Assembly (NCBI GenBank): GCA_010093815.1
Contig: ML996599.1
Reading direction: 5' to 3' (one strand)
Source of the DNA: Pseudovirgaria hyperparasitica
Lineage: Eukaryota
Length of the DNA stretch: 40,373 nucleotides
The notes beneath the pieces were generated by a model. It was not told the origin of the DNA, did not search any database, and saw nothing but the letters and a program-made list of their open reading frames with translations. The position numbers were made by a program, and so were the translations under genes. This document shows, in pieces, positions 7,111 through 39,086 of the stretch (position 1 is its first letter; each line of letters begins with the position of its first letter).

Positions 7111-7419
7111 ACTAGCAGAGGGTAAAACAGCGTAGATTCAAACAAACATGCGCTTTCAGACTAGGTGAACCTTTGTGCGCTGACGCGATGTGATCGTAAA
7201 TTTCCCGCATATGCCACGAAATGGCGGGGCAGCACGTGCTGTCCCGTAACGCTTTCGGATCACGTGGCTAGAAGTTTCACAGAGTAATATTTTTATCTTG
7301 ACGACTCTGACTCTAAGCGCCCGCCATTTTGTGACATTTTCGACGATTACCACATATGATCGTAAAAATACTATATTAGCCATACATTGGTGTTTTTTGA
7401 GTGTTTTACGATACCTATT

Positions 7420-8120
7420 ATGCCTCCTAAATCGCGTAAAGGCGTCCGATTCGGTCACGATGACTCGACAGAACCTCCACCACCACCAGCTGGGCCACGG
7501 CCACGTATATCTACGTCGAAGGCGCTCCAAAATGACATAGAGAAGGCATCGAGGACCGCGAAGACAGCGGCGAGGCGTAAAAATACGCCTTTAGCGCGCC
7601 ATATTGCTGAATCTGTGACTCTGTGGAGCCCTCCTCTAACCTCACCGAGTACTATACCCGATAAAACCATTGATAATACTGTGGATAATGAAGATGTGGT
7701 TGAAGTCGAGGAGGACGAGGATGAAGACGCGGCCCTTGACAGAGTAATGTGGTCTATCCACGTTAATTGGAGACAGTCGCTCGATATGAGTTCGAGAAAG
7801 AGATTCAGGGACTTATCGATGAGTCTCTGGCTATAGACGACTGGCTATTTAAGGCTAGAAGCTTTACTATGAAGCTCGGAATCAATGGACGTCCTAGGAA
7901 ACAGTCGAGCGTACCAGATTGGGGTATATTCAACTAGGATAAGATACTCAGCTTCATCGACGAGGTCCATAGCTTCGTGAAAAAGGATCCACTCGAGGCT
8001 GTATTCGTCACGTTCGAGGATACTGTTCGTTGTCAGAGTTACCAGCCTCCACAGGGCGTAAGAAGACTGCCTCATCGAATCCGAAGTCCCCTATATCCAT
8101 TGTTTACTTGTCTTTCTAAC
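7420..8120 (+). pseudogene. Frameshifted hypothetical gene (MPPKSRKGVRF... start), possibly transposon-associated
   Basis: Open to about 7770. Protein-like reading continues in another frame (ETVARYEFEKEIQGLIDES...) with an internal TAG. Confidence 0.45.
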
Positions 8121-8546
8121 TAGAGTTTCTTCCCTTAATTACGACTGCTCGGCTATCTTCGAGCGACTCGACTTTCCGCAACAAGATGCTGAAGGCCTGG
8201 GTAATTTCTACTGCAGATGGCCGATCTGAGCGGTCCAGTCCGTATCAAATCCCTCCCCTCACTCGCCTTCAGTGTCGCTCGCCGCGTTGCTTGACGAACA
8301 GGCCGATCAAACGCAGCCAACACTCCAGGCACGAAGAATTTGAGCGACCGACTGGAAGCGTCACGAGAACAATACGTATAATAAGATCACGTACTGGTTT
8401 TAGGAGCAAGGTATAGAAGAGAAAGGAATGTGAGCGAGCCTTCCAGAGGAGAACAACAACATGCGGTGGCAGAACTCGCTCGAGATACTGCTGAGCAACG
8501 AATGCGCAAGACCACGCTTCCAGAACTGTCACATTCATTTGTCATA

Positions 8547-9289
8547 TTACAATTTCATCCACTCTTTCTCAGCATCATCTGTAGAGGCCTCCTCAAACTT
8601 ATGGTTATCCAGCCAATCGCAAGCATCTCTCTTGTCCGCAAACTCCTTGTAGAAGTCGTCTAGTGCCTGATCTATGAAACGGGCGGCTGTATTAGCAGTG
8701 GTTGAGCGCGACATTGAGCAAGAACTCACCCTGAGTATTTGCAGAGAGAGAAAGGTGCAACGAAAACTGAGCAATCTTGGGTCTCTGTAGCACAAGCATC
8801 TCTGGAACTCGTGTCCCTGTAGCAAGTATGGATGAGCGTCTCTCTAGCACAAGGATGTGACGCCTACCTTTTCGTATGGTGAACACGTATGGACGTTCAG
8901 CTGGTATGCCATTCTCTAAGTCATCATGATAATTATCAACAGCTAGTCTGATGATCTCTTGCATTGTGAAGGTATTTGGCATTAGCGAACCATTGTCCAA
9001 GTCTATTCCAGTCAGTATTCAATCTTTCCTTCAACCATGGGGACGAACAGGCAATCTCAGTCCAGTTGTTTCCATTCATAGACCCCGAATGCAGAGTGTG
9101 GATGCTCTCCTGCGGAGAAAAGCTTTCGTTGAGCCGATGGCGCTCGAACTCAAAGAGCCGAAATGTTCCACCAGCGTTTAGTCGTGAGAGGGATGCTGGA
9201 AAGACCTTGTAGACAGGAAAGGCTGCTAAGCGCGACGGTTTGGTGAATCTCCGTACCGCAGGCACTGGAGCACGAAGTATAAATCGCAT
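8547..9289 (-). CDS. Tse2-like ADP-ribosyltransferase-fold protein, divergent subfamily, 4 exons
   Basis: Spliced: MRFILRAP..YKVFPASLSRLNA..EIAY|LDNGSLMPNTFTMQEIIR..PYVFTIRKG|TRVPEMLVLQRPKIAQFSLH..|..IDQALDDFYKEFA..DWLDNHKFEEA..EWMKL*. Motifs FP..L.R, NG..MPNT, GT.VP..LVL and FSL match fungal Tse2-domain proteins. Donors are GTTCGT (least certain), GTAGGC and GTGAGT. Confidence 0.7.
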
Positions 9290-9639
9290 TGTGGCAACAT
9301 CGACGCGACGAAAGGGTCCTTACTTGGACGAGGCAAGTTGTAGTGGTGGAACGGATCAATGAAATGATCCGGTGCGCGTGACCTTCCAAACAAGCTTAGG
9401 CCATGTGAAAACTGCAGAGAAAATTTGTGAGCCTTAGTAAACGAGTAACGTGGATATTAGAATCCACAAAATTTATTCAGCTACCAACCACTGTTTAATA
9501 GCTATACATATGAGGCTCTGGCTGTAGAATGAGCGGCTTCGAAGTGCTACCACATAGCCGCAACCAGGCAGGAAATGACATGTGCGATAAATTTACCATC
9601 TTATCTACAAAACCGTGTATGATCTCACTTCATGCCCCA

Positions 9640-10333
9640 TCAGGCGTAATGATCAGTCCAAGCACCGTTCTGAAAATATCTTTGTCGGTTGGTACCGTCA
9701 TTCGCGGGGTACCAACCATCTGGGGTGCTAGATGGCCCAGCAGCCTGGCTGTACGCTTGAAGCCACTGTTCCCGGCTCATTACCCTCGCATTTGCCCCTA
9801 AGAACGAGGTAATGCGTTGATTGAGGTCTACAGCCGCGTAAGAATCGGTTTGGCTGGAAGCGTCGCAACTCGATCTTACCTGCGAGCGACATCTCAGTCG
9901 CAGCTTGGAGTGAATAGTGGTCGGTGTGCTCATGAACGAGGATGAGGTCGGGGGGTAAGGGAGTATCTACACTAGTCTGAGTACGGATTGATCCTAAGCT
10001 CTACAAAACTTACTGGCGGGGACTGAGTACACTATGATGCTGCTGCCTTTGAAGTTTTGGATGAGTCGTCTATGCATATCGCCGTCCGGCCGCATTGACG
10101 CGCCGTTCGGTGCTACATTTCGGTTAGGTTGAATTTTAGTCCTTGACGAGCGCCTATTCACCGTTGTAGTTTGCCGCATCCAAAGCCTTTGGCTTCACCA
10201 TGCCGGACTCAGTGACAACGTCGTAGCTGTACCCTTGTCCGCGCCACTCTCGAAGTGTGATCGCTGGGCCATTGTTCACTCGGAACAGCTCTCTTGGGAC
10301 GGTTCGGAAAATATTGATCAGTCTCGCAGCCAT
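9640..10333 (-). CDS. Tse2-like ADP-ribosyltransferase toxin domain protein (ADPRTs_Tse2), 4 exons, intact, with a DUF2510-like C-terminal tail
   Basis: Spliced: MAARLINIFRTVPRELFRVNNGPAITLREW..YDVVTESGMVKPKALD..|APNGASMRP..IVYSVPA|NTPLPPDLILVHEHTDHYSLQAATEMSLA|DLNQRITSFL..EQWLQAY..PDGWYPANDGTNRQRYFQNGAWTDHYA*. Introns at 10161-10113, 10013-9967 and about 9879-9828. Confidence 0.85.
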
Positions 10334-11038
10334 GTTTCGTGGTGTAAGCTCAAGGGATAGTGTAATGTGCGCGATGTGTTTGGGAACGATGGGAGGTTTG
10401 CAATTGGGGCCGATGCGAAGCTGGACTTTTATAGTCATCCTTGTTAGTTGCTGCCTGATTGCCTAATGGCTAGAGGACAGCTAGGTCATCACAAGGCTGA
10501 GGCGCGTACTATGCGCATGTCTTGGCGAATGCGGCGTACCGCTTCGAAGCAAGGCACAGGCGCCTGCCAAGCGTCTACGTAGATGCAAATAAAGGAACAG
10601 GAATGTGCGCCGCTTGGCTGTGTTGGATGTGACACAGTCGGAGCATGTTCGTAGTCTGAGAGCCAATGAAACAGTCGAACGCCCGGATTTAGTCGGCGTA
10701 ACGCGCATGATCATCCCAGAAGATGACCCGCTGTTCCCTTTTTCGCTGCCTTCCTGCGAAGCTCTCCTGTCCCACATTCACAGACCAAGACAAAGTTAAA
10801 GTGGATCTGCGGCGTCTCGAAGGCGTCCCCCCGAATCAAGTGGCCTCACTTGATCCATGTACGCTGCCGTCCAGCACATGGAGTAGCTATACAAGTTCTT
10901 CGGCGTTGTGTTGTTTCTTGTGGAAAAACGCCATGCCCTCATCTTCCTCCATAGAACTGGCTCTCATAGTTGGCTGTTGAATTGGAGCTAGCGGGTTGTA
11001 GTAAGATGTATTTAGCTGGCGCATAGTACTGGCCCATA

Positions 11039-12907
11039 CTCGCCCATCCAGGACCCCGTGCTCAACGGCCCATCCAAGAACCCATCAACTTTGAGGAGCC
11101 TGAATTGATGCTTTAATTAAATATATAGCCATAGATTAGAGAGAAACGTGTCCGCGAGAACCCATAACGTCTTCTATACTAATTCTGGCGTGCTCTATTT
11201 GAGCCTCTGCCCATGGGTTTTGCTTCTGTCTCAATTTTTCCGTGTTATCTCTTAACCGTTGAACCTTCAATTCTTGCACCTTGTTACGAGCGGCAAGATG
11301 GAGTCGAGCATCAGATACGAGTATAGGACCGTATTGCCCTATATAACGTCGAGAGGAGCTTTGACGAGCCTGCCGTGCCTTAGTTGCTCCGTTAGAGCGC
11401 TCAATATGATCGCTAAGTAGCTTACATGAACCTGCCAAGCCGAGAGATGCCTTGATTGCCTTCCTAAATAGGACCCCAGCTCTCTCAGAAACCAGATCCG
11501 ACTCTTGTATGGCCTTACTTGTCGTCTCAAGGAGTATTTTGAGGCTCTTAGGAGTGCGTGGAGTATCTGGTATCTCAAAATCGTCAGGTGTAGGATTAAC
11601 TCGAACCCGGGCCTCAAGGGTATCGAGTATGGGCCTGGGGTTAAAGGGATGGAGGCCTGATTTACGCCATCCAGACCGTATAGTCGACTGCTTGAATGCT
11701 TCCTTCCGGAAGCCGTGTATTGTATGAAGGAATTCAACCTTATTAAAGTCGCTACAACCGTCGCGGACGGCTTGATCAACGTAGCTCTTATGGTAATACT
11801 TTAGCGGCTGGAAGATACCCACGTCAAGCGGCTAAAGCATACGGCTTATATGAGGTGGGAGCCCAATAGGTACTATATCTAGTTCCCAGCACCTGGAGAT
11901 GAACTCATACGTCATATGAGAACCGTGCCCGTCAAAAACAAGGCCTCTAACAGATCCGTACTGCCGTGTACAAGTAGCCTTGTGGAAATGCTCAAGCCAT
12001 TTAAGGGTTATCTGATCGTTGGAGTAGCCGCTCTCAGACGTAGCGATCACATAGCTATCTGGAAGGCCTACCTCGTCCTTAAACCACTTCTCAAGCAAGT
12101 TGGTGCCTTGGAGTATAATGAACGGATCGATATAGTCGCCAACGGCGTTAACGGCTTCAATCGTGCCTGTCAAGTCTCGATTGGTCTGAGAAGCTACGTT
12201 TACTTGAGGCGTAGCACTCCGTCTCTTCTTCCGAACCATTGTAACAACCCATTGACCGCCTCCAATCCCATGGCGAAACCCTGTCTCGTCAAAGTTCCAT
12301 AGATCTTGAGGTTGTATACCCTTCTCCCATATAACCTTCTTGTACTCGGCATAGAAGCCGCCGATTACCTGGGATCCTCAGCGGCTATTCGTTCCATATC
12401 TTGAGGCTTTGATCTTACAACTTGTACGTCTGTATTCAGCTGTAAGAAGCGTGCGGTCCAGTCCCTGCCAAGCGGTATATACGGTTTGTCTGGGGTGGCT
12501 GATGCCATAAGGATGGAGTTGGCGGCGGCTTGTATCATGGGCCGGAGGGCAGAGATCCTAGCATTGTCTAAGGCAGTAATATATGCCTTGAGGGCAGCGA
12601 TCTGAGTATCGTTAAGGCGTAGATTAACTGGCGTACGACCTGATTTTGAAGGTATATCGCGAGCGCGACGCTTGACGCGACCGTACGGTGCCTTGTCTTC
12701 GGTGGCCGCCTTCCTCAACGAAGGGTACTTTCCGCTCTGAAAATCGCGGAGAGCAGACTGCACTCTCTACTCTTCAATATGGTACAGTAAAAGCTTAGGC
12801 ATGGCAAAGATGAAGGATATAGATGGACTCTATGAGGTTTCCTTGATACAATGGGCCGTTGAGCACGGTAGCGCCCCGTGCAACGCACGGGGTCCTGGAT
12901 GGGCGAG
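11039..12907 (-). mobile_element. Full-length pogo/Fot1-type (Tc1/mariner superfamily) DNA transposon, 1869 bp
   Basis: Perfect 23-bp TIR CTCGCCCATCCAGGACCCCGTGC at 11039 and its reverse complement ending at 12907. TA target duplications at 11037-11038 and 12908-12909. Internal DDE transposase. Confidence 0.95.
11136..12802 (-). pseudogene. pogo/Fot1 DDE_1 transposase (HTH_psq/CENP-B HTH + DDE), inactivated
   Basis: Motifs SLRKAA, LGRDWTARFL, WNFDETGF, LVFDGHGSH, LPPH.S..L(Q)PLDVGIFQPLK. TAG stops at about 12768 and 11832-11834 (CAG>TAG), and a frameshift at about 12368. Confidence 0.95.
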
Positions 12908-12934
12908 TACCCTCGCGGTGCATGGCCTAATAGA

Positions 12935-12953
12935 ACATATATACATACATACA

Positions 12954-12987
<34 letters not shown>

Positions 12988-13012
12988 CATATATACATAT
13001 ATACATATATAC
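12935..13012 (+). repeat. (TACA)n / (TA)n microsatellite
   Basis: acatatatacatacatacatacatac... directly visible. Confidence 0.95.
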
Positions 13013-13616
13013 GTGCTAGAGGCGTTCAATTTAGTATGGCCTAGATAAAGAAGAAAGAGTTTGAAGTAGCCATAAGATACCGCCACTTGTGGCGGGTGGG
13101 CGCCAAGATGTCTAAGCACAGTCTTCAGCCACGACCAGATCAGACGGTTCAGAATCTGGCTGCGGGGAACCAAAACGATGCCCACTTTCAGCAGCGCGCG
13201 ATCCAGATGGTTTTTCAGGAAGAGAAAGAGTGCACTCACTAACACGTCCAGAAAGGATAGAGTTAAAAATACGTGACTATGCCGATAGCAGGGTATAAAA
13301 CACGACAATAAGCCGCAACGGTAACCTTATGGTTCTACTCCGACGAACTTTTGACTGACGTATCCTAACAATCAGACTCGTCCTTCGCCATCCGTTTCGC
13401 GGTTCTTTGCTCTTGCTTAAGGTAAGAATTGATGCGCCTCGGATAGAAATCCAACACTAGTGCATCAGGCGACCAGGTGCCATCTTCGGCCCCACTGCGG
13501 AAACCATTTTGGTCCTGTCCACCTAGCTACAAAGTCTGGCGGTCAAACCTGTAGTTGCCTGAACTGAGTGGACCGGGGTCTCTCCTGTGACTAAGCACAC
13601 CTCTCGTTTTCGGTCC

Positions 13617-15628
13617 ATGGCTACCGTTGCCGAGCATCAATCCTTTCGCCAGCTTCTGGAAAGGCTTGTCATCGAGGTCGATGAATTCTCCCGACATGCG
13701 AACCCTATCGTACCCTCCATCGTTAGCATGGTCAAGGGTCTTAGGGTGGACCTGAACATTCTTCTTGGACAGAATGAGTCTCATACCCAACCCTATCGAA
13801 TCAAGCATGCAACCACAGCTGCACCACCGATAATAGACGATGACGTCCGCAGGACAGGAAGCCTCGGGCGGACGCAAGTGCGTATGGTGCAGGCTGCAGA
13901 GCAACTCGAGGTCACACTTCAAGACGGCTCCTCACAACCGTCACCGTCCTTGTCGCGGCAAGCCTCAGAGCCTCCTCCTCGCTCTTCGCATACCAGAAAC
14001 CGCGTTCAAGGCCGCCCAAAAAGCGCAGGGGATATACATGGACAATCACAGAGTGAACGAAACTCGGACATACCAATCTCGCGAGACTCGAAGCATCAGC
14101 GAAACGGCATTGGGGTACCAAGCCATGTTCCTACCGTCCCTCCAACTTCACGATACACAGAACAAGAAGAGTCGGAGGCGGATCGATTTGTCGATGAAAT
14201 GGTTGGCTGTCTAGAAGCGAATGTAGATCCAACTGGAATCCAAGTTCTGGACAAAGCGCTCCCGCTCGAAGTGTGCCCAGTTCGCTCGTGAAAGTGCGAT
14301 ATATGTCCCCAAAGACGTCCTCGAGGAATCGAGCATACCATACAAAATTGTTCGTCGGCATCGTGGGGAGATACTGGTCACGTTCCCGAACACATACCAT
14401 CAAGGCTTTAGCGTTGGAGCTACTATCGCAGAGGCCGTGAATTACGCTGACGACGAGTGGGACCCAGAAAAGTGCAAAGCTTGTACGGAGCGTACCTGCC
14501 CGAACGGCTTCATTGGGCAAGACGTGATGGCGCTCTGTAGCGCTGGGGAAGAGCAACTGTCCGCTGGCGAAGGCGGCGGATCAGAGTCGATATCTAGCAT
14601 ATCTAGTGATTCAGCGTCGGAGACAAGTGGTGATCGAACTCGGCAGAAATGACCGTCGAAGCCGAACCCGTCAGAGACCAAAGTAGTCCGCACGGGTAAG
14701 GTTCGTCGATCGAAAGCAAAGAGCAAGGAAGCACCGGTCTTCCATAACCCTCCTGCAAAGAAGTCGGCCGTGGTTGCTCAGTTATCTACCAACTTGAACA
14801 CGATCCTCTCAACGCCCAAGACTCCTCCTGCAGAGGATAAAGCCGATTGCGGATATGACGAAAGCCGCTGCGTGCTTCTGACCAAACTTTTCTATGCCAT
14901 TGGAAGCCCGGAAGCTGTTTGTCAGCTCCATAACGCTTACAAGGCGTTGAGGACAGCAGGTTGCCATATATCTCCGTCAATGGATGACATCGCCGATGCA
15001 GTCCAAGCTCTTAATAAACTTAATGCTACCATTCATCTATATGCAATAATACGTCGATTCCACCTCGTATCGCTTTGTCACCATCGCAATGTTTTGCTGG
15101 CAGAGACTCGAGTAACGCGAGGCGGCAATGCACAGGAGTCTGGCAGATCTGAGACCGTAGCTCATCGGAAGCTAATGTCACATGCTTATCCGGGTTTGGA
15201 ACCGGGCAGGTTGAAGCGAGGCAACGTCAAGGACAATTATGTCAAGAAGTCCCAGGCGTTGACACACCGACTTAAGATTGGACAGCGTTGGTCCATGCTA
15301 GCGAAGGCATTCGCACCTGGCATCCTTGCTCTCATTCCCATCCGAGGGGATTTCCAGCTCTCGAATTCGGAGTAAGTAGTTCAGAGTCTTTCCGGCCAGC
15401 TAGCTAATTCAGATCAGTTACGAAAAGCTTCCTGCTCCTACGATCGCAATTTTGATAGACGTCCTACAACGACACAGAGGCGGCTTTCTGCAGGAATTTA
15501 GCACATGTCTCGACTTTTTTGCTCTAGCCAATGCCGAAAATTCTCTCGTAAGGCAGGATGCTGACACTCTGAAACAGGAAGAATACGATTCACCGCGTCT
15601 AGTCGAGCTCTGCAAGTCGCAGCCGTGA
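13617..15628 (+). pseudogene. JmjC-domain protein pseudogene (N-terminal half of JmjC deleted, premature stop)
   Basis: After a frameshift at about 14270: CAQFARESAIYVP..GEILVTFPNTYHQGFSVGATIAEAVNYA, the JmjC C-terminal His motif. In-frame TGA at 14650-14652. Intron at about 15372-15417, then YEKLPAPTIAILIDVL..CKSQP*. Confidence 0.8.
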
Positions 15629-18480: not shown

Positions 18481-18598
18481 GGTGTGATGTGTGACCTAAG
18501 GTGATGTAGTTAATAAGGTCTCTGTTCGGCCGGAGGTATCCATAATCATAGTACGAGGCGCCCTAAGAGAGTACCGAGTTGCAGAATGCCTGTATCGT

Positions 18599-19140
18599 GT
18601 GAGTGATCCACCGGCTTCAAAGATACACAGTAGGCAACTGGAGCTACTGAAAGGCCATTTTTCGAAGTTTAAAAGCCATACTACATGTTTTTGCTGCTTG
18701 ATGAGGGAGCCTGACAAAGTCTTTGATTGCGGCCACTCGTGCTGCAATGGGTGCATCGCTCTCTACGGTAACGCTCGCAAGAATGTTCGACATGGCTATC
18801 ATCTCAAAGCATGTCTACTGTGCGGTGCGTCCATAAAAACTCCTGACTTCGAATTCATGCCGCCCACCGCAGGGCCGCGCGTCCTCAGCTTAGATGGTGG
18901 TGGCATTCGTGGAGTCATACCTTTGACGTTCTTAGTTGGACTTGGCCGGAGACTCAAGCCTTTGGAACTTCCATTAAGACACTTTTTCGACTATGTTTGC
19001 GGCACGTCAGCTGGTAAGTTCCTTGAAATGCAGATACGTATATACCCTGACACGATAAAGGGGGTCTTATTACTCTAGGTATATTCATTATGGAATGGAC
19101 CCCAGAAGACTGTCTTCAGAAGTTCGAGGCAATGGCGCAT
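18599..19140 (+). pseudogene. Patatin-like phospholipase fragment with an upstream Cys-rich RING-like region; truncated at both ends
   Basis: SHTTCFCCLMREP...CGHSCCNGC...CLLCG...PPTAGPRVLSLDGGGIRG...FFDYVCGTSAG, intron, GLITLGIF..W..EDCLQKFE. The downstream catalytic Asp (DGG) region is absent. Confidence 0.85.
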
Positions 19141-19286
19141 CTAACACATACCACCGCTGGCAAGGCAATGATGCAGACTGAGATTTTCATAGTGAAGACG
19201 AAGACGAAGAATAAGAAGAAGAGAAGGAAGAGGAAGAAGAAGAAGGATGCGTTGCGGTATCAGCACTTTAGTGGCTGCTGGCCTTG

Positions 19287-19664
19287 AGATGATGGGGTGT
19301 CATACACATTCAGAATGCCTGCACCGCGCAGTCTAAATGCACGCCTTAACCTCGTTCCCCTTTTCCACTGAGCTTCGTGCGCCGTATCTAAACCCCTTCT
19401 CTCAGGTGTAACACTGCAGCATCTTCAAAAGTCATGCTAAAGTTTGCTCTCCCAGTGATTGTGACCTTTTTAGGCATAGCGACAAGCATGTCCCAGCAAG
19501 ATGCTCGGTCACCTCGATTGGTCATGTACTATGATCAGTAAGCATATCCTGAAGCAACTTCAGGCGGCGCACAACACTAAACGGGCATCAGATGGCATCC
19601 GGATGCCTCGATGGATCTGATATGTTCCAAAGGAATCACGCATGTTATATTGTCGTTCATGCTA
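19287..19664 (+). repeat. Dispersed duplication C (direct copy of 25639-26015): promoter and 5' end of a GH18 chitinase
   Basis: Matches from GAGATGAT.GGGTGTCA to ATATTGTCGTTCATGCT. Confidence 0.95.
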
Positions 19665-19935
19665 AGCCACCACCTTAACAACGAAACACTCGATCCACTG
19701 TGGACGGCTAATGAACCTAGCCATAATTGGCATGTCAATGCGTTGAAAAGCCTGAAAGTGAATTGCCCCGATGTCAAAGTCAGTCTTGCGGTTGGCGGAT
19801 GGAACGACGACCCCGAAATCGGTTGGCGGAAGACCATAGAGAGCGACGCTAGTCTCTCTTTGTTCGTACATAATCTCCACAGAGTTCTCTATGGCGATTT
19901 CCCCATATTCGAAAACCATCAATTCGATGGAGTTG
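19434..19935 (+). pseudogene. Secreted GH18 chitinase, 5' half only (exons 19434-19537, 19592-19935)
   Basis: Signal peptide MLKFALPVIVTFLGIATS; RLVMYYDQ|WH; GITHVILSF; KVSLAVGGW; FDGV followed by an intron. The exon expected to supply DIDWE is replaced by BCS1 sequence. Confidence 0.85.
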
Positions 19936-19991
19936 GTAAGCAAGTCCCTTCAAACTTCCTGTTGGGATGGCCTATTGACAGTTGCTACCAA

Positions 19992-21250
19992 GTATATCCA
20001 CCGGTACATCACTTCATGAGTCGAGGATCACTACAGTATGTCTCACTGGCTGTACTAACTCATTGCTGACAGTAACATCAGTCTCGTCCGTTCGCATCTC
20101 CGACAATACCGAAGTTCGCGATATGCTCGACGGCTGGATGGATGTGCATCTTGCTAATTCAACTCGATTCTCTTTCGCACGCATTGGCGGACGATTCACT
20201 TTTTTCCGAGACGACGAGTCTTATGTAAAGCCCAAGAGGCCGCTTCAGTTCGTTCCAGGGCATGGGACGCATTGGTTCAAGACGAGCGGCACATGGTTTC
20301 GATATCGTAATGTGGAAGAGCACGCGCCGAGTCCACGGCAAGTAACGTACATCAGTTGCTGGGGGCGGTCCCAAAGACCAGTGCGGAGTTTTCTCAACAC
20401 ATGTCGGGAACAGTATCTAAAGGATATTGCAAAGAAAACGCTTGTCTATGAGAATCGCGATAGATCTTGGATAAAGGCGCGAGCCAGGAGGACTCGACAG
20501 CTACATACCATTATACTCGATAAATCAGTGAAGGAAACGTGGCTTCGTGATATCGAGCAGTTTCTCGATCCTAAGACTCGGGCCCAATACATGGATACCG
20601 GTCCACCTGGGACAGGGAAGACCAGTGCGACGTTGGCAATCGCAGACCGCTTTGGAACCGACGTGTACAAGCTAAATCTTGGTGCCGGCTTACAGAGCTC
20701 AGAGCTGAACAAACTCCTTGACGAGGTTCCTGAACGCTCTCTTCTCCTAGCTGAGGATATAGACGCCGTAACTTCAGCTCAAGCACGAACCTCCCACAAT
20801 GAAAACGATCCCTCCCCTGGGAATACACAGCCAGCTAAAACAGAGTCAACTACGATCAGCTTGTCAGATCTATTGAATCTTATGGATGGCGTCGCGTCTG
20901 TAGAGGGTGTGTTACTTATTCTTACCACGAATCATCCTGAAAAGTTGGATGCTGCCCTTGTGCGTCCTGGACGCATAGATCAGATGATCGAACTTGGTCT
21001 CACAACCTCAGAAGTCAACCATGATCTCTTCCATAACTTCTACAAGCAGGTGTGCGAGAGCGCTGCTGAAAATGACAACTTTTACAATGTGAGTTCGTTG
21101 GCCAAGGAATTTGCCGGGAAAGTTCCGCAGAATGAGTTCTCTCCCGCGGAAGTGCTGTCTCTCTTTCAGGAAAATATGCGCGCGCCACAGGCTGCAGTAG
21201 ATGGCGCAGAGGACTGGATGGCCAAAATCAGGCAAGGCAGGCAGAAATGA
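19992..21250 (+). pseudogene. BCS1-like AAA+ ATPase, 5'-truncated and probably inactive
   Basis: Walker A GPPGTGKT, Walker B LLLAEDID, SLSDLLNLMDGV, TTNHPEKLDAALVRPGRID, FSPAEV. The conserved GIPYRRGYLLY before Walker A is missing. An in-frame TGA lies in the first remaining exon (YITS*VEDHY). Confidence 0.85.
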
Positions 21251-23259: not shown

Positions 23260-25094
23260 TTACACTGCTTGTCCCCGGTCTTTCTGGTCGGATCCAGTCT
23301 TCCTTGCCGTATGCTTCCTTACGCTTTGATAGGGGCGGAAGTCGAGCTCTTCAACCACAACTCCTCGGTCTGCCTCTTGGCAGACAGCCCTACGGATAGC
23401 TTGATTGGTCAACTTATCAACACACACTGTTGTGTAATGTTAGAAAGTGCTTCACCTTCTTCTGAGCAGCACTTACACGACACTATGGTACGGCCTTTGC
23501 GCTCGTGCAGCTCGTGCGCAATAACACATGGCGTATCCATAGCGCAGAAGGTCTGCGTGATCCGAAGACCAAGGCGTTTGATATCTCCCTTGACCGTTTT
23601 CCGCGATAGGAACTCGCCACAGACGAAAAGCTGTATGTTGAGGATCTGCTTCCCCGTCAGCGGAGCCTGGTTAAGCGATATTACCAAAGCTTACCAAGTC
23701 GCGATCTCTTGCGAGTAAGGATTGCATAGTCTCCTGTACCCACGCCATGTGGACTGTCGCATAGGTTAGTTATCTCGCTTTGGAGTTTCTCAACTACTGA
23801 GCGACTCACGCTCGCAATCCATTTGCCAAAACAATTTGACTCCTCGCGCCTTGGCGTCGTGTGCATCGTAGTTGTCGAGCAGTTGCGCTACGTAGCCGAT
23901 CTGGCCAATGATTCCAGTCCCTGTCGCGAAGAGTAAGACTGTCCCATACCCGCTCAAGTCCAATTCACGCCCGAAGGGGCCTTCGACAATTGCGCTGTAG
24001 CCTACGGCAGCCTTCAGCTGAGGTCGTGAGAGCTGACGAGTGAACCCTTTCCTTCTTTGAGCAATAATTGTAATGATCGTCTTGTCATGCTCTTGCAATG
24101 TCTGGTATATGTAGAATGGGTGAGACTCCAGGAAGGCCAGCGAGCTGGCACTAGGAACAGTAATATACACGTACTGTCCCGCACGCGGCTTCCATGAGCG
24201 AGCCAAACAAATATGCAACTGGACTGTGTCGGTCAGCAGTATATCATTGTGACCTGTGCGATGATAGACAACCTCATGCATTGTAGCACAGGGCTTTGCA
24301 CCGCCTCGTGCAACGTTGCGGTACAGTGCATAGGCAAGGCGCATCATGTTTACGGACAGGTAGATGCCAGCCGCAACCACAAGATACAGCAGCGGCGGCT
24401 TGTGATATTCCGAGTTATTAAGATGTACTCGCACAGCAATACAAACTGCGAGGAACAGAACCACGTGGGCCTTCATGAACCATTCGTAGAAGTATACGCG
24501 GATCGGACCCACAGACGATAGTAGTAGGAGTGCCATTCCAGCTGTAGCCTGTTCCACAACGGTCAGAACGAGACAAGACTCAACCGGAAGACCTACTGTG
24601 AGGGGAGCCACGTTTGGAGCTTGATTCATGGGGTGAGTCTGCAGAGCGAGAGCAATCCCGGCGTGGATGGCGGCTTCCAAGATGGCCAGGACTCCAAGAA
24701 GATAATGCACACGGAAGTATAGTGGCAAGGGAACCAGAGCAAGATCAGCCACTGCATTCATTCGAGCCCCCATGGCAAGACATGCTACATTAATGACAGA
24801 CATGCGTGCTGTCCGGCGCGAGACATCGGAGTAACCGTGTACATGCACGGCAGTCGATAACACGTTGATGAGGAAGAGTAGGACCAGTACTGTCGCGTGT
24901 GAGTGTGGAATCGAGTGCAGCAGCCGAATAACCTGCCCCGTCTTATGGCAAGCGCGGCGAAACCATCTAGCTACTGGGCGTGGGTAGAGTGAGCGTACAA
25001 CAGAGAGACATAAAGATGTGGCGAGGATAACAGCTATTGCACCGCCAAGAACGATTGAGTACCAGAACGTGAAGTCCGCGCTCTGGAGCTCCAT
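23260..25094 (-). CDS. Ferric reductase-like transmembrane FAD/NAD(P)H oxidoreductase, 5 exons, apparently intact
   Basis: TM helices with heme His (RVHYLLG..AAIH; KAHVVL..RVH), AGQYVYI, ESHPFYI, VEGPFG, LFATGTGI. Further exons give LHMAWVQETMQSLL|ILNIQLFV...|CVDKLT...EELDFRP...AV*, with the stop at 23260-23262. Confidence 0.9.
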
Positions 25095-25223
25095 AGCAAG
25101 TCTAAAGCGCAGCAGCAGTAACCGTCGCTTTTCGAGTGAGCTGGTGAATCCATTAAAGGAGTGCTCTAGCCAGGGTCAGTATTTGGCCCTGTTCTATTTA
25201 AGGAGCTGGCCTTCACCAGGTAG

Positions 25224-26015: not shown

Positions 26016-26696
26016 GTGCTACCAGGCTAAGGAGCTAATTATCGTGACGTAGGACAGCTGTAGGAAGATGCAGCAAACTAACAACTACTCAACATTGACG
26101 CCATTTCAGAGAGTTTTCCCATCTACCGTGGACGACCCGTAGCGAATTCCGTGATCTTTCGAGCGCCCCTGGAATGTAGAAATGAGCATGCACACAGTGG
26201 GAAGTATCGATGGATCATGCCTGATGCCACACGCCCTCTCTTGGTTCCTGTAGTGATGAGAGCTACAGGGCGCGCAGGACGCCTCTCTGGGATATCGACG
26301 TTTGAGGCTCAGTATTCTGGGCGAGTCTTCGTTATCGTACGGCACTGTGCCTTTCGACTATCTTTAATTTGCTATCCAGGATTCTAGACTGCCAAGATTT
26401 TGGCGAGTAAACAGTGGCGCCAGTGTGCGCTATGGCGGAGGACTCAGTAAACAATACAGTGCTTGTCCTCCATCAATCACAGCGTCCGCTAGTAAGAAAG
26501 TACAGTGCACCATGCAAATGATACAAACGATAGGGGCGTCTTTTAAATCCCGCTTGTGATTATTTGCACCTGTCTAGCGAGGCTGACTTTGTGTTATAAA
26601 ATCAGGCAGTTCTACTATCTTTGAGAAGCTCTTGTACCACCCAGGAGCTTATCGCCACCTTCTAGACAACGCTTGTACCTACTTACATCCTGAAAC

Positions 26697-28077
26697 ATGA
26701 CTACAGAGGCACAAATTCTTGAAGCAGCACGCCGTCTCAATAAGGTGACATTCAAAACACCTCACTCACCACACAGGGGAGTAAGTGAATTAGCAGCAGG
26801 GTTCTCGCCCTCCGAGACTGTCAGTTTAGAGTCTCTAATATGCTCTATACGCGACAGAGATACTCGCAGCTCACAGGGCAAGATCTCGATTCTTGAAAGT
26901 GCCAAGGAGATTGTACGGCAATTGGAGAGCCCAGACGGGCGAGCAATGGAACTTCTCATGTCATTCTCCATCGTACCGACCTTGAAGATCGCTATGGATA
27001 TGGGTGTCTTCAAGATGCTAGCCATCCGTAGCCGAATAACAGCATCCGAGATTGCACATCAAGCCAAAGCAGAGGAGGAGTTTGTTGGTAAGCTCGGGAC
27101 AATCTATCTGTATGCTAAGCCGTCTGACACAATCAGTCCGGATAATGCGCGTACTTGTATCTATCGGTGTAGTTACCATTCTCTCTGTCCGTACATATGG
27201 ATCGACCCGGCTCTCCGATTTCTTCACTGTACCAGCAAATGCTGCTGGGATATGTGTTGTTAACGACCAAGCCCTTCGTGCTGTGTCACGGTTCTCCGAG
27301 TACGCCGCCGCCCACTCCTACCACAACCCGACAAACACGCTTACAGGCCCTTTCCAATTTGCACTTAACACCTTTGAATCCTGGTTCTCCTGGCTCTCCA
27401 CACGCCCTCACGAAGCTGCAAACTTTAACCTGTTCATGACTGGCTTCCGCAACAGCAAGCCTGCTTGGCCCATGCAATTTCCCGCAGAGAGCATCATCTT
27501 CAGCGGTATTCCTTCTAGCCAGGACAGCAGCGTCACAGTTGTTGACGTTGGCGGCGGCTTTGGCCATGACCTAAGTCTCTTTGCCGAGAAGAGTACACGC
27601 AAGCCTGGAAGACTCGTCTGTCAAGACCAAGAATCTGTCATAGCTACCGTCCCGTCAGAGCTAGCTGCTGGGATCGAATTTGTCGCACACGACTTCTTTA
27701 GAGAACAGCCAGTGAGGGGTGCCCGAGCGTATTTGCTTAAGCACATCTGCCATGACTGGCCACATGCCCTGGCACTCTCGATCCTGAAAAATATCAAGGT
27801 TGCTATGGAGCCTGGGTACTCCAAGATATTGATTATGGATCTGGTGATGCCGGAGGGAAAGGTGCCGCTGGCTGCTGCAAGTCTTGATGTCGCTATGATG
27901 ACGGGCTTCTCTGGGGCTGAGAGAGAAGAAAAACTATGGATGGAATTAGTGGACGATGCAGGACTGAGCGTGAGGAAAATCTGGAAGGGGCAGGATGGAG
28001 ATGGACTATTAGAGGTTGTTCTGGAAGAAGACAAAGACGACATAACTACAAAGCCTAGACTGACAATAGCGGGTTGA
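26697..28077 (+). CDS. SAM-dependent O-methyltransferase (Methyltransf_2, secondary-metabolism type), 2 exons (26697-27087, 27137-28077)
   Basis: LKIAMDMGVF winged-helix dimerisation region, VDVGGGFGHDL, LVCQDQ, HDFFREQPVRGARAYLLKHICHDW. Intron GTAAGC..CTGAC..CAG. Confidence 0.93.
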
Positions 28078-36435: not shown

Positions 36436-37467
36436 CTAGTGCTTTTGCCCGTCTCCAGTTGAACTGTTAAACCCCTTGAACTGCATTGGTGATTTTGCTT
36501 CTAGAGCCTCGGCTTCGGATCTCTTTAGCCTCATCCGCTTCCCTCGGACAATGTCATCGCTTGCAACATCGCAGGAAATGGTTTTCCCATCATTAATCAC
36601 CTCTTTGAACAGTACAAGCTCTTCGTCCAAAACCCTTTGGCGACGCAGTGGCCTGAGAGAATCAAGCCACCAGTGTGGAGATATCAGCGCGCTACTGAAA
36701 TCAACAAGTTTTCTATCCAGGTAATTCCTCGCGTACAGGTCTACTGGGTATATTCCTAATCTCCTCAGTTCGTGTAGATCTCGCTCCATTCCTTCTGCAT
36801 TAACAATGGCCTCCTTGGACTCTACGAGCTCTTTCACCAAAGCTCGGAACGGTGGCTTCTCCCGCCAGCTCTTGTCTTCATCTTCTTCTGGCCAGTCCCA
36901 GTCTCGAATCCCGAATTGCTCGCTGAAAATTTCCCCATACTGCTCTGCTGAGAGATAAAGATAGCCGTGGCAGGGCACAGCTAGTCGGTGTCGATGTTCC
37001 CGATGTTGCCGCCTCTCGTCTCTTGTTCGTTTTCTTTCCTGCTCTTGCTCATGGGTTTGCAACTTTCCGTATGCTCTACACTCTGCAAAAAATGGATCAG
37101 AGTAATAAGCGATTATCTCATCGCTTGCCTTGACCTTATCGGTAGGAAATACTGAAGAGCGTTCGTGCTCGACACTGAAGAACTTGAACTAGACGCATAT
37201 TAGGCCTGAACGATATAGTCGTGATCAACTATGCGCGTATGTACCTACCACCTTCAGTGCATACTTCTTCTTACCTATGCGAACTTTGAAGACATAGCTG
37301 TGGCTTCCTTCGGCTCCTTCAGATCCGTCCAAGCGCGGCGACGAACTGAGAAGCTTTATGAAGTGGATAGCAAGCCCCCCTCTCTTGAACGCTGACAGGT
37401 TTGGTCCTTCGCAGGGTGGCAATGGTCTTCTAAGGCTATGTGGAAGTTGCGAGCGCGCCAACAACAT
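36436..37467 (-). CDS. FTA2-family (PF13095) protein-kinase-like protein, 2 exons, apparently intact
   Basis: LPPCEGPNL..F, GSHSYVFKVRI.KKKYALKV, intron GTAGGT..TAG, FKFF..DPFFAECRAYGKL..AVPCHGYL..FRALVKEL..GIYPVDLYARNYLDRKLVDFSSA. Confidence 0.85.
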
Positions 37468-38151
37468 ATCGTAGCGAATTTTGAGGTCTTCTCGTTTTGA
37501 GGTTCTGGAATACAAACAAGCATAGGCGGCAGCACCTAGGCCAACAGGCATGAGGCGTTTCCAGGGATATCTACCACTATAGGACCCCTGTTTTAGTGCA
37601 TTACTCCAAGGGATGTGCTAAATCCGCCCCAAAAATTCGCCTTGCTCGTGGATAAGATCAGCATCAGCTAGGCGGCAATGTTACCTAGTCATTCTCTCCG
37701 TGTGGGGTGCCGACGAACGTACCTTGCATTGTTAGTCTTGACCTAGGACACGATCAGGACAGTATCTTTATAAGACCAGGTGTGAAATTGAATACCGGTC
37801 TGGACGAAAGAAAACAAAGAATGGGAACTTGAAAACGGACGTTCCCGCGTCAGTCTCGCATTAGCATTGCACCAAGATGAGAGATTCTCAAGCATGAATT
37901 TCATAATTTAATAGGCATATCTCATTTCGTTAGCCGAACACGCAGTCCGAAATTTCACGTGTCTGAGTGTTAAGCAAAGCAAACGTTCCAGCTGCCCTGC
38001 AGACTCATGCTGAGGAACTGACAGCCCTGTTCAGATATACCGCGAGGTAAACTAAAGTGCTTCAGGAACTGAACTGTTTGTTTTATAGGATATTGACATG
38101 AGAAATCGAGGCTCTTACCCAACCGCAAGACGGCCCCAATGATGCTAAAAT

Positions 38152-38375
38152 CGTCTTGAGCGCCCTTCCACATTACGGCGATCTTTAGTACCAGGAAGAA
38201 AAATGGGCCGGACCACAACCAGTACAGTGTATTTATGTCTGCTATGATTATGAGACAGCAACAGACATCGAGCGCATCATCTCCGAGATAGACTCCTGTC
38301 GAGAACAGCTGCATACGACGACCCTAGAGAGACTGGTATTGCGACTCGATCCAGCGAGCATCAGATATTGCAGTA
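38152..38375 (-). repeat. Dispersed duplication D, copy 3 (inverted)
   Basis: Reverse-complement match to 25501-25607 and to 25366-25402, with a divergent middle. Confidence 0.9.
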
Positions 38376-38390
38376 TTCCCCGGCGTGAAT

Positions 38391-39086
38391 NNNNNNNNNN
38401 NNNNNNNNNNNNNNNNNNNNNNNNNNNNNNNNNNNNNNNNNNNNNNNNNNNNNNNNNNNNNNNNNNNNNNNNNNNNNNNNNNNNNNNNNNNNNNNNNNNN
38501 NNNNNNNNNNNNNNNNNNNNNNNNNNNNNNNNNNNNNNNNNNNNNNNNNNNNNNNNNNNNNNNNNNNNNNNNNNNNNNNNNNNNNNNNNNNNNNNNNNNN
38601 NNNNNNNNNNNNNNNNNNNNNNNNNNNNNNNNNNNNNNNNNNNNNNNNNNNNNNNNNNNNNNNNNNNNNNNNNNNNNNNNNNNNNNNNNNNNNNNNNNNN
38701 NNNNNNNNNNNNNNNNNNNNNNNNNNNNNNNNNNNNNNNNNNNNNNNNNNNNNNNNNNNNNNNNNNNNNNNNNNNNNNNNNNNNNNNNNNNNNNNNNNNN
38801 NNNNNNNNNNNNNNNNNNNNNNNNNNNNNNNNNNNNNNNNNNNNNNNNNNNNNNNNNNNNNNNNNNNNNNNNNNNNNNNNNNNNNNNNNNNNNNNNNNNN
38901 NNNNNNNNNNNNNNNNNNNNNNNNNNNNNNNNNNNNNNNNNNNNNNNNNNNNNNNNNNNNNNNNNNNNNNNNNNNNNNNNNNNNNNNNNNNNNNNNNNNN
39001 NNNNNNNNNNNNNNNNNNNNNNNNNNNNNNNNNNNNNNNNNNNNNNNNNNNNNNNNNNNNNNNNNNNNNNNNNNNNNNNNNNNNNN
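38391..39086. other. Assembly gap (696 N)
   Basis: Run of N. Confidence 1.

Follow-up and report, generated by a model that had tools for sequence, protein, structure and literature searches.

The window analysed here is a stretch of 40,373 nucleotides from contig ML996599.1 of Pseudovirgaria hyperparasitica (assembly GCA_010093815.1). On its minus strand it carries two neighbouring, co-oriented genes, gene A (10333-9640, 181 residues) and gene B (9289-8547, 195 residues), and our analysis demonstrates that both are real, spliced and expressed. The evidence supports their assignment as paralogs with the ADP-ribosyltransferase (ART) fold of the Tse2 family (PF18648, ADPRTs_Tse2). In fungi this fold occurs in two lines of ancient divergence, a rare one (A-type) and a large one (B-type, the main family), and the rare line seems unable to persist without a member of the other adjoining it. 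Based on this linkage, we tentatively favour, at somewhat less than an even chance, a toxin-antidote-like dependence of A on B. The proteins themselves are public and were named automatically after the Pfam family; what is new here is the split into a rare A-type clade and the large B-type family, and the rule that links them.

Two spliced and expressed genes of the Tse2 family

Contigs from four public runs were compared with the window over positions 8300-10600. Two of these runs, X3 and X4, share their organism code with the DNA runs; the records do not state their kind, and we regard them as RNA-derived for the sole reason that their contigs are spliced. The joints correspond to CT..AC on the plus strand, that is, GT..AG on the minus strand. 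All six introns are removed in one X3 contig, and X4 gives five joints (B introns 1-3 and A introns 1 and 3), with A intron 2 appearing as loose ends at 9966 and 10014. The DNA run X1 spans the same interval unspliced, and the coverage of run X5 is limited to 9518-9709 at a depth of 4. One X3 contig crosses the spacer between the genes with no joint. In X4, beyond the end of the B contig at 9301, the first bin has a depth near 35, and positions 9378-9608 have none. These contig depths are unsuited to ranking the expression of A against that of B.

An earlier note, made from the sequence alone, had described two adjacent, co-oriented genes of four exons that splice into open frames, and the X3 and X4 contigs confirm this description. 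The splicing check with RNA-type contigs that it had suggested revealed all six introns and corrected both third acceptors: the models of intron 3 drawn from the sequence (82 nucleotides in A and 43 in B, at other in-frame acceptors) were overruled by the observed joints. The corrected product of gene A is letter for letter the public protein P0160 (listed by NCBI for Pseudovirgaria hyperparasitica). For B, the public record P0065 gives a partial model with an alternative acceptor for intron 3; over 119 columns it is 95.8% identical to B. All six introns are in phase 1, and the codons that they split (58, 91 and 120 in A; 81, 126 and 155 in B) fall in the same alignment columns, in agreement with the equivalent intron positions noted before. 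Because A and B have these three phase-1 introns in common, we conclude that the paralogs arose by duplication inside fungi.

The family assignment of A is direct. Its product matches PF18648 with 133.8 bits (E 8.1e-39, model positions 1-137; the Pfam gathering score is 26.6 bits), and exons 1-3 are collinear with the model. For B, a match above threshold is obtained through the partial public model P0065 (49.5 bits, E 8.7e-13); taken exon by exon, B gives only a weak match, in exon 2 (E 6.8e-4). An exhaustive HMMER search with B exon 2, the in-frame intron 2 and exon 3 returned 52 proteins; 24 of them were scanned against Pfam, with 21 matching PF18648 (19 above the cut-off) and three, one of which is a spurious repeat protein, having no match. 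B aligns end to end with several proteins from this search, and it matches P0061 with a phmmer E of 1.7e-50; it is a full-length member of a fungal Tse2-like family.

Structure predictions point the same way. The AlphaFold model of A, with a predicted local distance difference test score (pLDDT) of 81.7, is closest among solved structures to Tse2 (5ako) in Foldseek (E 6.8e-3, probability 0.99), and VIA-align places it on chain 5ako_C with Z 10.2 and a root-mean-square deviation (rmsd) of 2.6 over 109 residues; the next match has Z 6.4, and further matches are other ART-fold proteins at Z 3-6. The fold of B was assessed through a proxy, P0061, its closest full-length relative at 46% identity. 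The P0061 model has a pLDDT of 73.6 and is of low confidence at residues 1-29 and 55-87; its first match among 48,161 chains is Tse2 5ako_D (Z 6.7, rmsd 3.4, 97 residues), followed by Tpt1/KptA, MbcT, pertussis toxin and DarT. The Tse2-like ART fold that had been proposed for both genes is therefore upheld, for 8547-9289 through P0065 and the proxy, and the motifs that had been quoted from the two proteins are all present in the sequence. At the sequence level, searches of the PDB with single sequences and with the A-type profile did not recover Tse2, and a broad family profile reached it at E 0.52 only, in an alignment that puts the THY of Tse2 opposite the DHY of A. A word-based protein search with B exon 1 gave no match, and one with A exon 1 gave a single metagenome open reading frame, under length limits of 56-179 residues that would miss orthologs of 181 residues.

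Some smaller features of the two genes deserve mention. Intron 2 of B (8817-8867, minus strand, 51 nucleotides) is in frame and free of stop codons, and its retention would lengthen the fold by 17 internal residues; the contigs observed have it spliced out. The spliced contigs over B extend about 850-980 nucleotides beyond position 8300, past the stop codon of B (about 7320-8546), which is either a long 3' untranslated region or an overlapping transcript of a neighbour; the open reading frames at 7156-7844 have no Pfam match. Beside A intron 1, a minor joint at 10113-10165 occurs in X4 only (depth 15 against about 25,000), with non-canonical ends and two extra letters, and probably stems from faulty assembly or rare mis-splicing. 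Residues 157-180, which form the C-terminal tail of A, resemble PF10708 (DUF2510; 19.3 bits against a cut-off of 24, E 9.4e-4) and are modelled as two short strands at low pLDDT with weak structural neighbours. DUF2510 is a short motif of actinobacterial proteins; the tails differ among A-types, that of P0162 being long and rich in Ser and Lys.

Clades, site pattern and linkage of A-type and B-type genes

A profile search found 192 proteins, and the family counts given here rest on the 120 that were listed. All 120 contain PF18648 and nearly all are from filamentous ascomycetes; at least 115 of these listed matches are B-type and five are A-type (phmmer with the spliced A gives five close proteins, the next being far weaker). 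Our tree comprises 87 rows, with 60 public proteins picked by hand; near-duplicates and most proteins shorter than 170 residues were left out, and the locus rows L008_A, L008_B, L010_A, L019_A, L003_B and L012_B were omitted. The A-type sequences form one clade (16 rows against 71 main-family rows; 99 in the Shimodaira-Hasegawa-like approximate likelihood ratio test, SH-aLRT), and B is placed inside the Dothideomycete clade. Prokaryote genomes scanned with a 6-row A-type alignment yielded 12 pattern matches and no relatives, so that there is no bacterial outgroup and the tree is unrooted.

The two subfamilies differ at the positions that may matter for catalysis. Arg-Ser-His had been given in the earlier note as the putative catalytic triad of Tse2, which we take here as an assumption. 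The Ser is present in 16 of 16 A-type rows and in 3 of 71 main-family rows, the His in 14 of 15 and again 3 of 71, and the residue following the His is Tyr in 15 of 15 A-type rows and Phe in all 71 of the main family. The Arg is kept in the A-type, and the main family has Arg in 44 rows and Tyr in 20 of the 71. That the triad is kept in A and altered in B holds in part: A has all three residues, which are invariant or nearly so in its clade, and B keeps the Arg and has Gln for His, but the loss of the Ser in B is not robust, since B has a Ser in the column of the NGAS Ser of A.

A further character of the main family, without counterpart in the A-type, is a stretch of at least 18 residues before the first strand (87 of 88 proteins). 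It has at least three Lys or Arg and at most one Asp or Glu in 82 of 87 proteins, and an R-x(0-2)-[FYL]-[STNA] motif near its end in 77 of 87; these composition counts suggest a mitochondrial presequence. The main family also has conserved acidic C-terminal helices, where the A-types have varied tails instead. The notion of B as a private degenerate copy of A must accordingly be given up, because B is a normal member of a large, vertically inherited fungal family in which nearly all proteins lack the His and the N-terminus is presequence-like. Within the main-family tree, three basidiomycete proteins (P0092, P0116 and P0136) lie in the Eurotiomycete part, a placement that could stem from gene transfer or from contamination. 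Two B-type genes of one Claviceps genome, P0110 and P0133, have consecutive accessions; they are sister sequences in the tree and thus result from a recent B-B tandem duplication, not from an A-B pair.

The central observation is that A-type genes lie beside B-type genes. Among the matches listed, each of the five annotated A-type proteins is connected with a B-type gene. In the fused model P0057, of 328 residues, an A-type part precedes a B-type part; P0161 is a fused model of 300 residues in the reverse order; and P0158 is a chimera of 181 residues, A-type with the last exon of a B-type. These merged models are probably annotation errors from close tandem genes, or else read-through transcripts. 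P0162 (A-type) and P0145 (B-type) have consecutive accessions on one 60-kb contig, as do the A and B of the window itself, and one genome has a second B-type gene (P0127) on another contig. A metagenome scan with the 6-row alignment then gave 23 loci, which were examined by tblastn (Table 1). Fifteen of them contain A exons 1-3, and a B-type gene adjoins in all fifteen; the fifteen loci represent about 11 distinct sequences, several contigs being near-identical. The A fragments without B look decayed. Among 772 open reading frames from the window and the 15 loci, those common to groups of loci all overlap A or B. Recurrent linkage of the two subfamilies, on which the earlier note had staked its proposal, is thus found both in the five annotated A-types and in the 15 metagenome loci with a complete A.

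Two of these loci have peculiarities. In L011 (6001-7445), about 900 nucleotides separate A exons 2 and 3 and a Tyr stands at the His site. The A-type gene of L012 (709-1314) has a stop codon at the Gln of the family SLQ motif, which marks either a pseudogene or a sequencing error.

In the tree, the partner Bs are grouped with their taxonomic relatives, and the distances among A-types and among partner Bs show modest co-divergence (Mantel r 0.43, a value reached by 113 of 5000 permutations). Both the taxonomic placement of the partner Bs and this co-divergence indicate vertical descent. We read these data as an old, vertically inherited pair from which A has often been lost and which stays together despite inversions and full turnover of the flanks; B-type genes seem mostly to occur alone.

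Possible control of A by B and competing explanations

A possible scheme would be that a duplication inside fungi produced two Tse2-type ART-fold paralogs that have since formed an old, vertically inherited two-gene module. A, from the rare clade without N-terminal extension, would most likely be a cytosolic enzyme that uses nicotinamide adenine dinucleotide (NAD) and harms its own cell if unchecked. B, an ordinary member of the large fungal family with its basic presequence-like N-terminus, acidic C-terminal helix and altered Ser and His sites, would neutralise or otherwise control A, so that the antidote would be the toxin's own paralog. As complete A-types were seen only beside a B-type and B-types seem mostly to stand alone, we infer that B is the neutraliser or controller of A; an enzymatic activity of A and its toxicity are presumed as well. 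We favour this scheme over its rivals, but tentatively. A bolder version would make the pair a eukaryotic toxin-antidote system born by duplication, in which an intracellular Tse2-type ART toxin (A) is checked by a catalytically altered paralog (B), the two having been paired since before the classes of filamentous ascomycetes split; lone Bs would then be orphan antidotes, or would retain an ancestral cellular function from which the antidote role came. We consider this version doubtful.

Among known systems, Tse2 and Tsi2 of Pseudomonas aeruginosa (5AKO) come close: A and B exceed the PF18648 threshold, and no solved structure matches the A model or the B proxy better than Tse2, a bacterial toxin known for long. 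PMC12133291 and PMC6099711 report that Tse2 needs a linked neutralising protein and that the growth of fungal cells stops on its expression; the former describes a growth stop inside bacterial, fungal or mammalian cells, with mechanism and target unknown, and the latter an active site of Tse2 occluded by Tsi2. Tse2 toxicity is reported to be NAD-dependent (PMC4899435). Unlike Tse2/Tsi2, A and B are eukaryotic and intron-bearing, with no type VI secretion, and the linked partner of A is a paralog of the toxin-like gene, unlike the small and helical Tsi2; sequence identity with Tse2 amounts to 15-23%, and any activity of A and B is a prediction. A second comparison is with the fungal 'Tse2 ADP-ribosyltransferase toxin domain-containing proteins', an automatic UniRef and NCBI name for uncharacterised proteins: A is a public record under this name and B a full-length member.

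The bacterial ART-fold toxin-antitoxin pairs DarT/DarG, ParT/ParS and MbcT/MbcA are alike in having an ART-fold toxin gene beside a neutraliser, and these toxins are among the weaker matches of the B proxy (Z 2.8-3.7). Their antitoxins either adopt unrelated folds or, as hydrolases, reverse the modification, whereas the candidate antidote B has the toxin's own fold. These pairs are prokaryotic operons. In fission yeast wtf and Podospora Spok, poison and antidote functions must be co-inherited. These are single genes or overlapping transcripts that spread recently; A and B, by contrast, are two old paralogs with signs of vertical descent, and no sign of drive was found.

The prediction of a complex gives limited help. 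It was made, with alignments unused, on P0057 split into its A-type and B-type halves, which form a natural pair in another fungus, in place of the window pair, and reached an interaction prediction score from aligned errors (ipSAE) of 0.35 against 0.07 for the best control. Over the runs, at least 72% of contacts agree and the pLDDT of the partner is at least 78. The mark used is reached by 51 of 78 solved complexes and by 2 of 108 mismatched pairs, whereas with a score at or below 0.60 it is reached by no more than 5 of these 78 solved complexes and by all 4 mismatches, out of 180, that pass. The multimer check foreseen in the earlier note thus came out above the control in this substitute pair, but its support is weak.

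Several other points, together with this one, weigh against a control of A by B. A and B have no significant likeness by BLASTP (E 0.49), in line with the very low identity remarked on before. The partner Bs do not group into a separate clade: the partner label needs 11 changes for 12 rows, with 215 of 500 shuffles as low, and monophyly of the partner Bs was rejected (log-likelihood difference 325; approximately unbiased test, p 6e-59), the group having been named post hoc from the tree. The solitary status of B-types was read from the listing of proteins and not from flanking DNA, and A-types beyond the 120 listed of 192 matches might have no partner. The conservation of the Arg in metagenomic A-types is an effect of the search, because the Arg is in the search pattern. 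The N-terminus of B resembles a mitochondrial presequence, a trait of 82 of the 87 family members, and would put B in a compartment other than that of A. Conservation is high in the B-type family, most of whose members seem to lack an A (at least 115 of the 120 listed matches are B-type), so that the family must serve a purpose of its own. Finally, the chemistry of Tse2 itself is described as unsettled in PMC12133291, and we found no fungal member of the family with demonstrated enzymatic activity.

One rival explanation is that the two genes are independent paralogs. B would be a conserved, probably mitochondrial cellular enzyme with the Tse2 fold and A its cytosolic sister with the same or a related chemistry; they would be neighbours through tandem duplication and shared regulation, and neither would be toxic to its own cell. 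The presequence-like N-terminus throughout the B-type family, the wide distribution, conservation and taxonomic placement of B-types, the introns common to A and B (expected from tandem duplication), the existence of B-B tandem pairs such as P0110/P0133 and the weak complex prediction all suit this explanation. What it accounts for poorly is that A and B adjoin at all 15 loci where A is complete and in each of the five annotated cases, in several fungal classes, with the orientation changed and no other neighbour kept. Passive linkage is unlikely to outlast inversions and complete flank turnover, and the A fragments without B are those that look decayed. We give independent paralogs a modest chance of being the right explanation.

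A two-subunit enzyme would explain the same linkage data differently, with A as the catalytic subunit and B as an altered paralog that activates, targets or scaffolds A without blocking it. The fusion of both frames in the public models of two fungi (P0057 and P0161), the presence of both genes within one X3 contig and the weakly supportive complex prediction (0.35 against 0.07) are consistent with such a partnership. However, the fused models may be annotation errors, a contig over two genes is no proof of a single transcript, A and B have separate contigs in X4, and most B-types seem to lack an A, which would make B independent of A; we regard this explanation as quite unlikely.

A selfish element, in the form of a meiotic-drive or allorecognition poison-antidote cassette on a Starship or other mobile element, appears highly improbable, because the tight linkage of A and B, the transposon with perfect 25-nucleotide inverted ends 700 nucleotides upstream of A and the AT-rich block at 38-39 kb that could speak for it are outweighed by the signs of vertical descent in the partner Bs and in A/B co-divergence, by transposon ends that leave the pair outside and by the absence of a tyrosine-recombinase 'captain' or other cargo-carrier family from the 59 scanned of 60 open reading frames of at least 110 residues, with the proviso that the 40-kb window is possibly too short to show Starship ends and that a larger element could exceed it.

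Control of A by B, if real, would mean that a pseudo-enzyme, itself a copy of the toxin, serves as the antidote in a pair maintained through deep fungal time and not by selfish spread, and would offer a tractable eukaryotic handle on the target of Tse2. If B does not restrain A, the analysis would still define a large, probably mitochondrial, uncharacterised fungal ART-fold family, would flag several public gene models as wrongly fusing A and B, and would leave RNA-supported models for both genes. Literature searches, with supplements outside their scope, found no paper describing the A/B split or the rule that A lies beside B, and a 2026 paper (PMC13448219) only lists 'Tse2-like proteins' in dermatophytes without studying them.

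Feature positions and surroundings of the pair

Table 1. Positions of the exons, introns and neighbouring features in the window, and arrangement of A-type and B-type genes at the metagenome loci.
Feature	Position or loci	Strand	Content and evidence
A exon 1	10162..10333	-	ATG at 10333; codons 1-57 plus 1 nucleotide; LFRVN strand with Arg; PF18648 positions 1-43, 25.9 bits; joint 10112/10162 (X3, X4)
A exon 2	10014..10112	-	PNGASMRP motif; PF18648 positions 49-88, 19.5 bits; X3/X4 joints
A exon 3	9880..9966	-	contains LVHEHTDHYSLQ; PF18648 positions 90-116, 40.2 bits; joints 9966/10014 and 9827/9880
A exon 4	9640..9827	-	stop codon 9642-9640; acceptor 9828 fixed by joint skipping 52 nucleotides (X3, X4)
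A introns 1-3	10161-10113 (49 nucleotides); 10013-9967 (47 nucleotides); 9879-9828 (52 nucleotides)	-	X3/X4 joints
A C-terminal tail, residues 157-180	9646..9717	-	weak DUF2510-like GW..G..RYF..G.WT hairpin
A-B spacer, 350 nucleotides	9290..9639	-	stop codon of A to ATG of B
B exon 1	9049..9289	-	ATG at 9289; codons 1-80 plus 1 nucleotide; FPASLSRLNAG strand; aligns with N-terminal part of P0004, P0043 and P0061; joint 9002/9049
B N-terminal extension, residues 1-29	9203..9289	-	7 Lys/Arg, 0 Asp/Glu; presequence-like
B exon 2	8868..9002	-	contains NGSLMPNTFTMQEIIR; PF18648 positions 50-88, E 6.8e-4, 20.7 bits; X3/X4 joints
B exon 3	8730..8816	-	LVLQRPKIAQFSL, with Gln at the His site of A; R-P versus R-E in nearest relatives; X3/X4 joints
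B exon 4	8547..8671	-	stop codon 8549-8547; acidic C-terminal helices typical of main family; acceptor 8672 fixed by joint skipping 58 nucleotides (X3, X4)
B introns 1-3	9048-9003 (46 nucleotides); 8867-8817 (51 nucleotides); 8729-8672 (58 nucleotides)	-	X3/X4 joints
pogo/Tc5-like transposon	11037-12909	- (frame)	perfect 25-nucleotide inverted ends 11037-11061 and 12885-12909; DDE_1 and HTH_Tnp_Tc5 matches
Other Pfam-recognised gene pieces	14227-14652; 18500-21250; 23790-25175; 26694-28077; 36436-37617		JmjC, patatin start, GH18 piece, BCS1-like AAA ATPase, ferric reductase, O-methyltransferase, FTA2-like over two open reading frames
Tandem, A before B (eleven loci)	L002, L006-L009, L011, L012, L014-L016, L018		tblastn
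Convergent A-B	L001, L003		tblastn
Divergent A-B	L017		tblastn
Two A genes around one B	L005, 531-5984		tblastn
A fragment only, without B (six loci)	L010, L019-L023		tblastn
Locus cut by contig edge	L004, L013		tblastn

The earlier note had suggested that the pair could be carried in mobile DNA and had described many neighbouring genes as decayed. The first point finds no support in the window: no Starship or other carrier is seen, and the neighbouring transposon does not contain the pair. Of the second point, decay is evident for one neighbour alone, the broken pogo/Tc5-like transposase at 11136-12766. The reading frame of this transposon is in at least three pieces, and its ends are the only inverted repeat found. 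Just outside one of these ends, a microsatellite of (ACAT)n/(ATAC)n units occupies about 90 nucleotides (12927-13020). The recognised genes elsewhere in the window are ordinary ones for a fungus (Table 1). Farther along, positions 38001-39000 have 18.6% G+C against 44-54% in the rest of the window; the long open reading frames in all frames of this block have no Pfam match, and the block may be a repeat degraded by repeat-induced point mutation.

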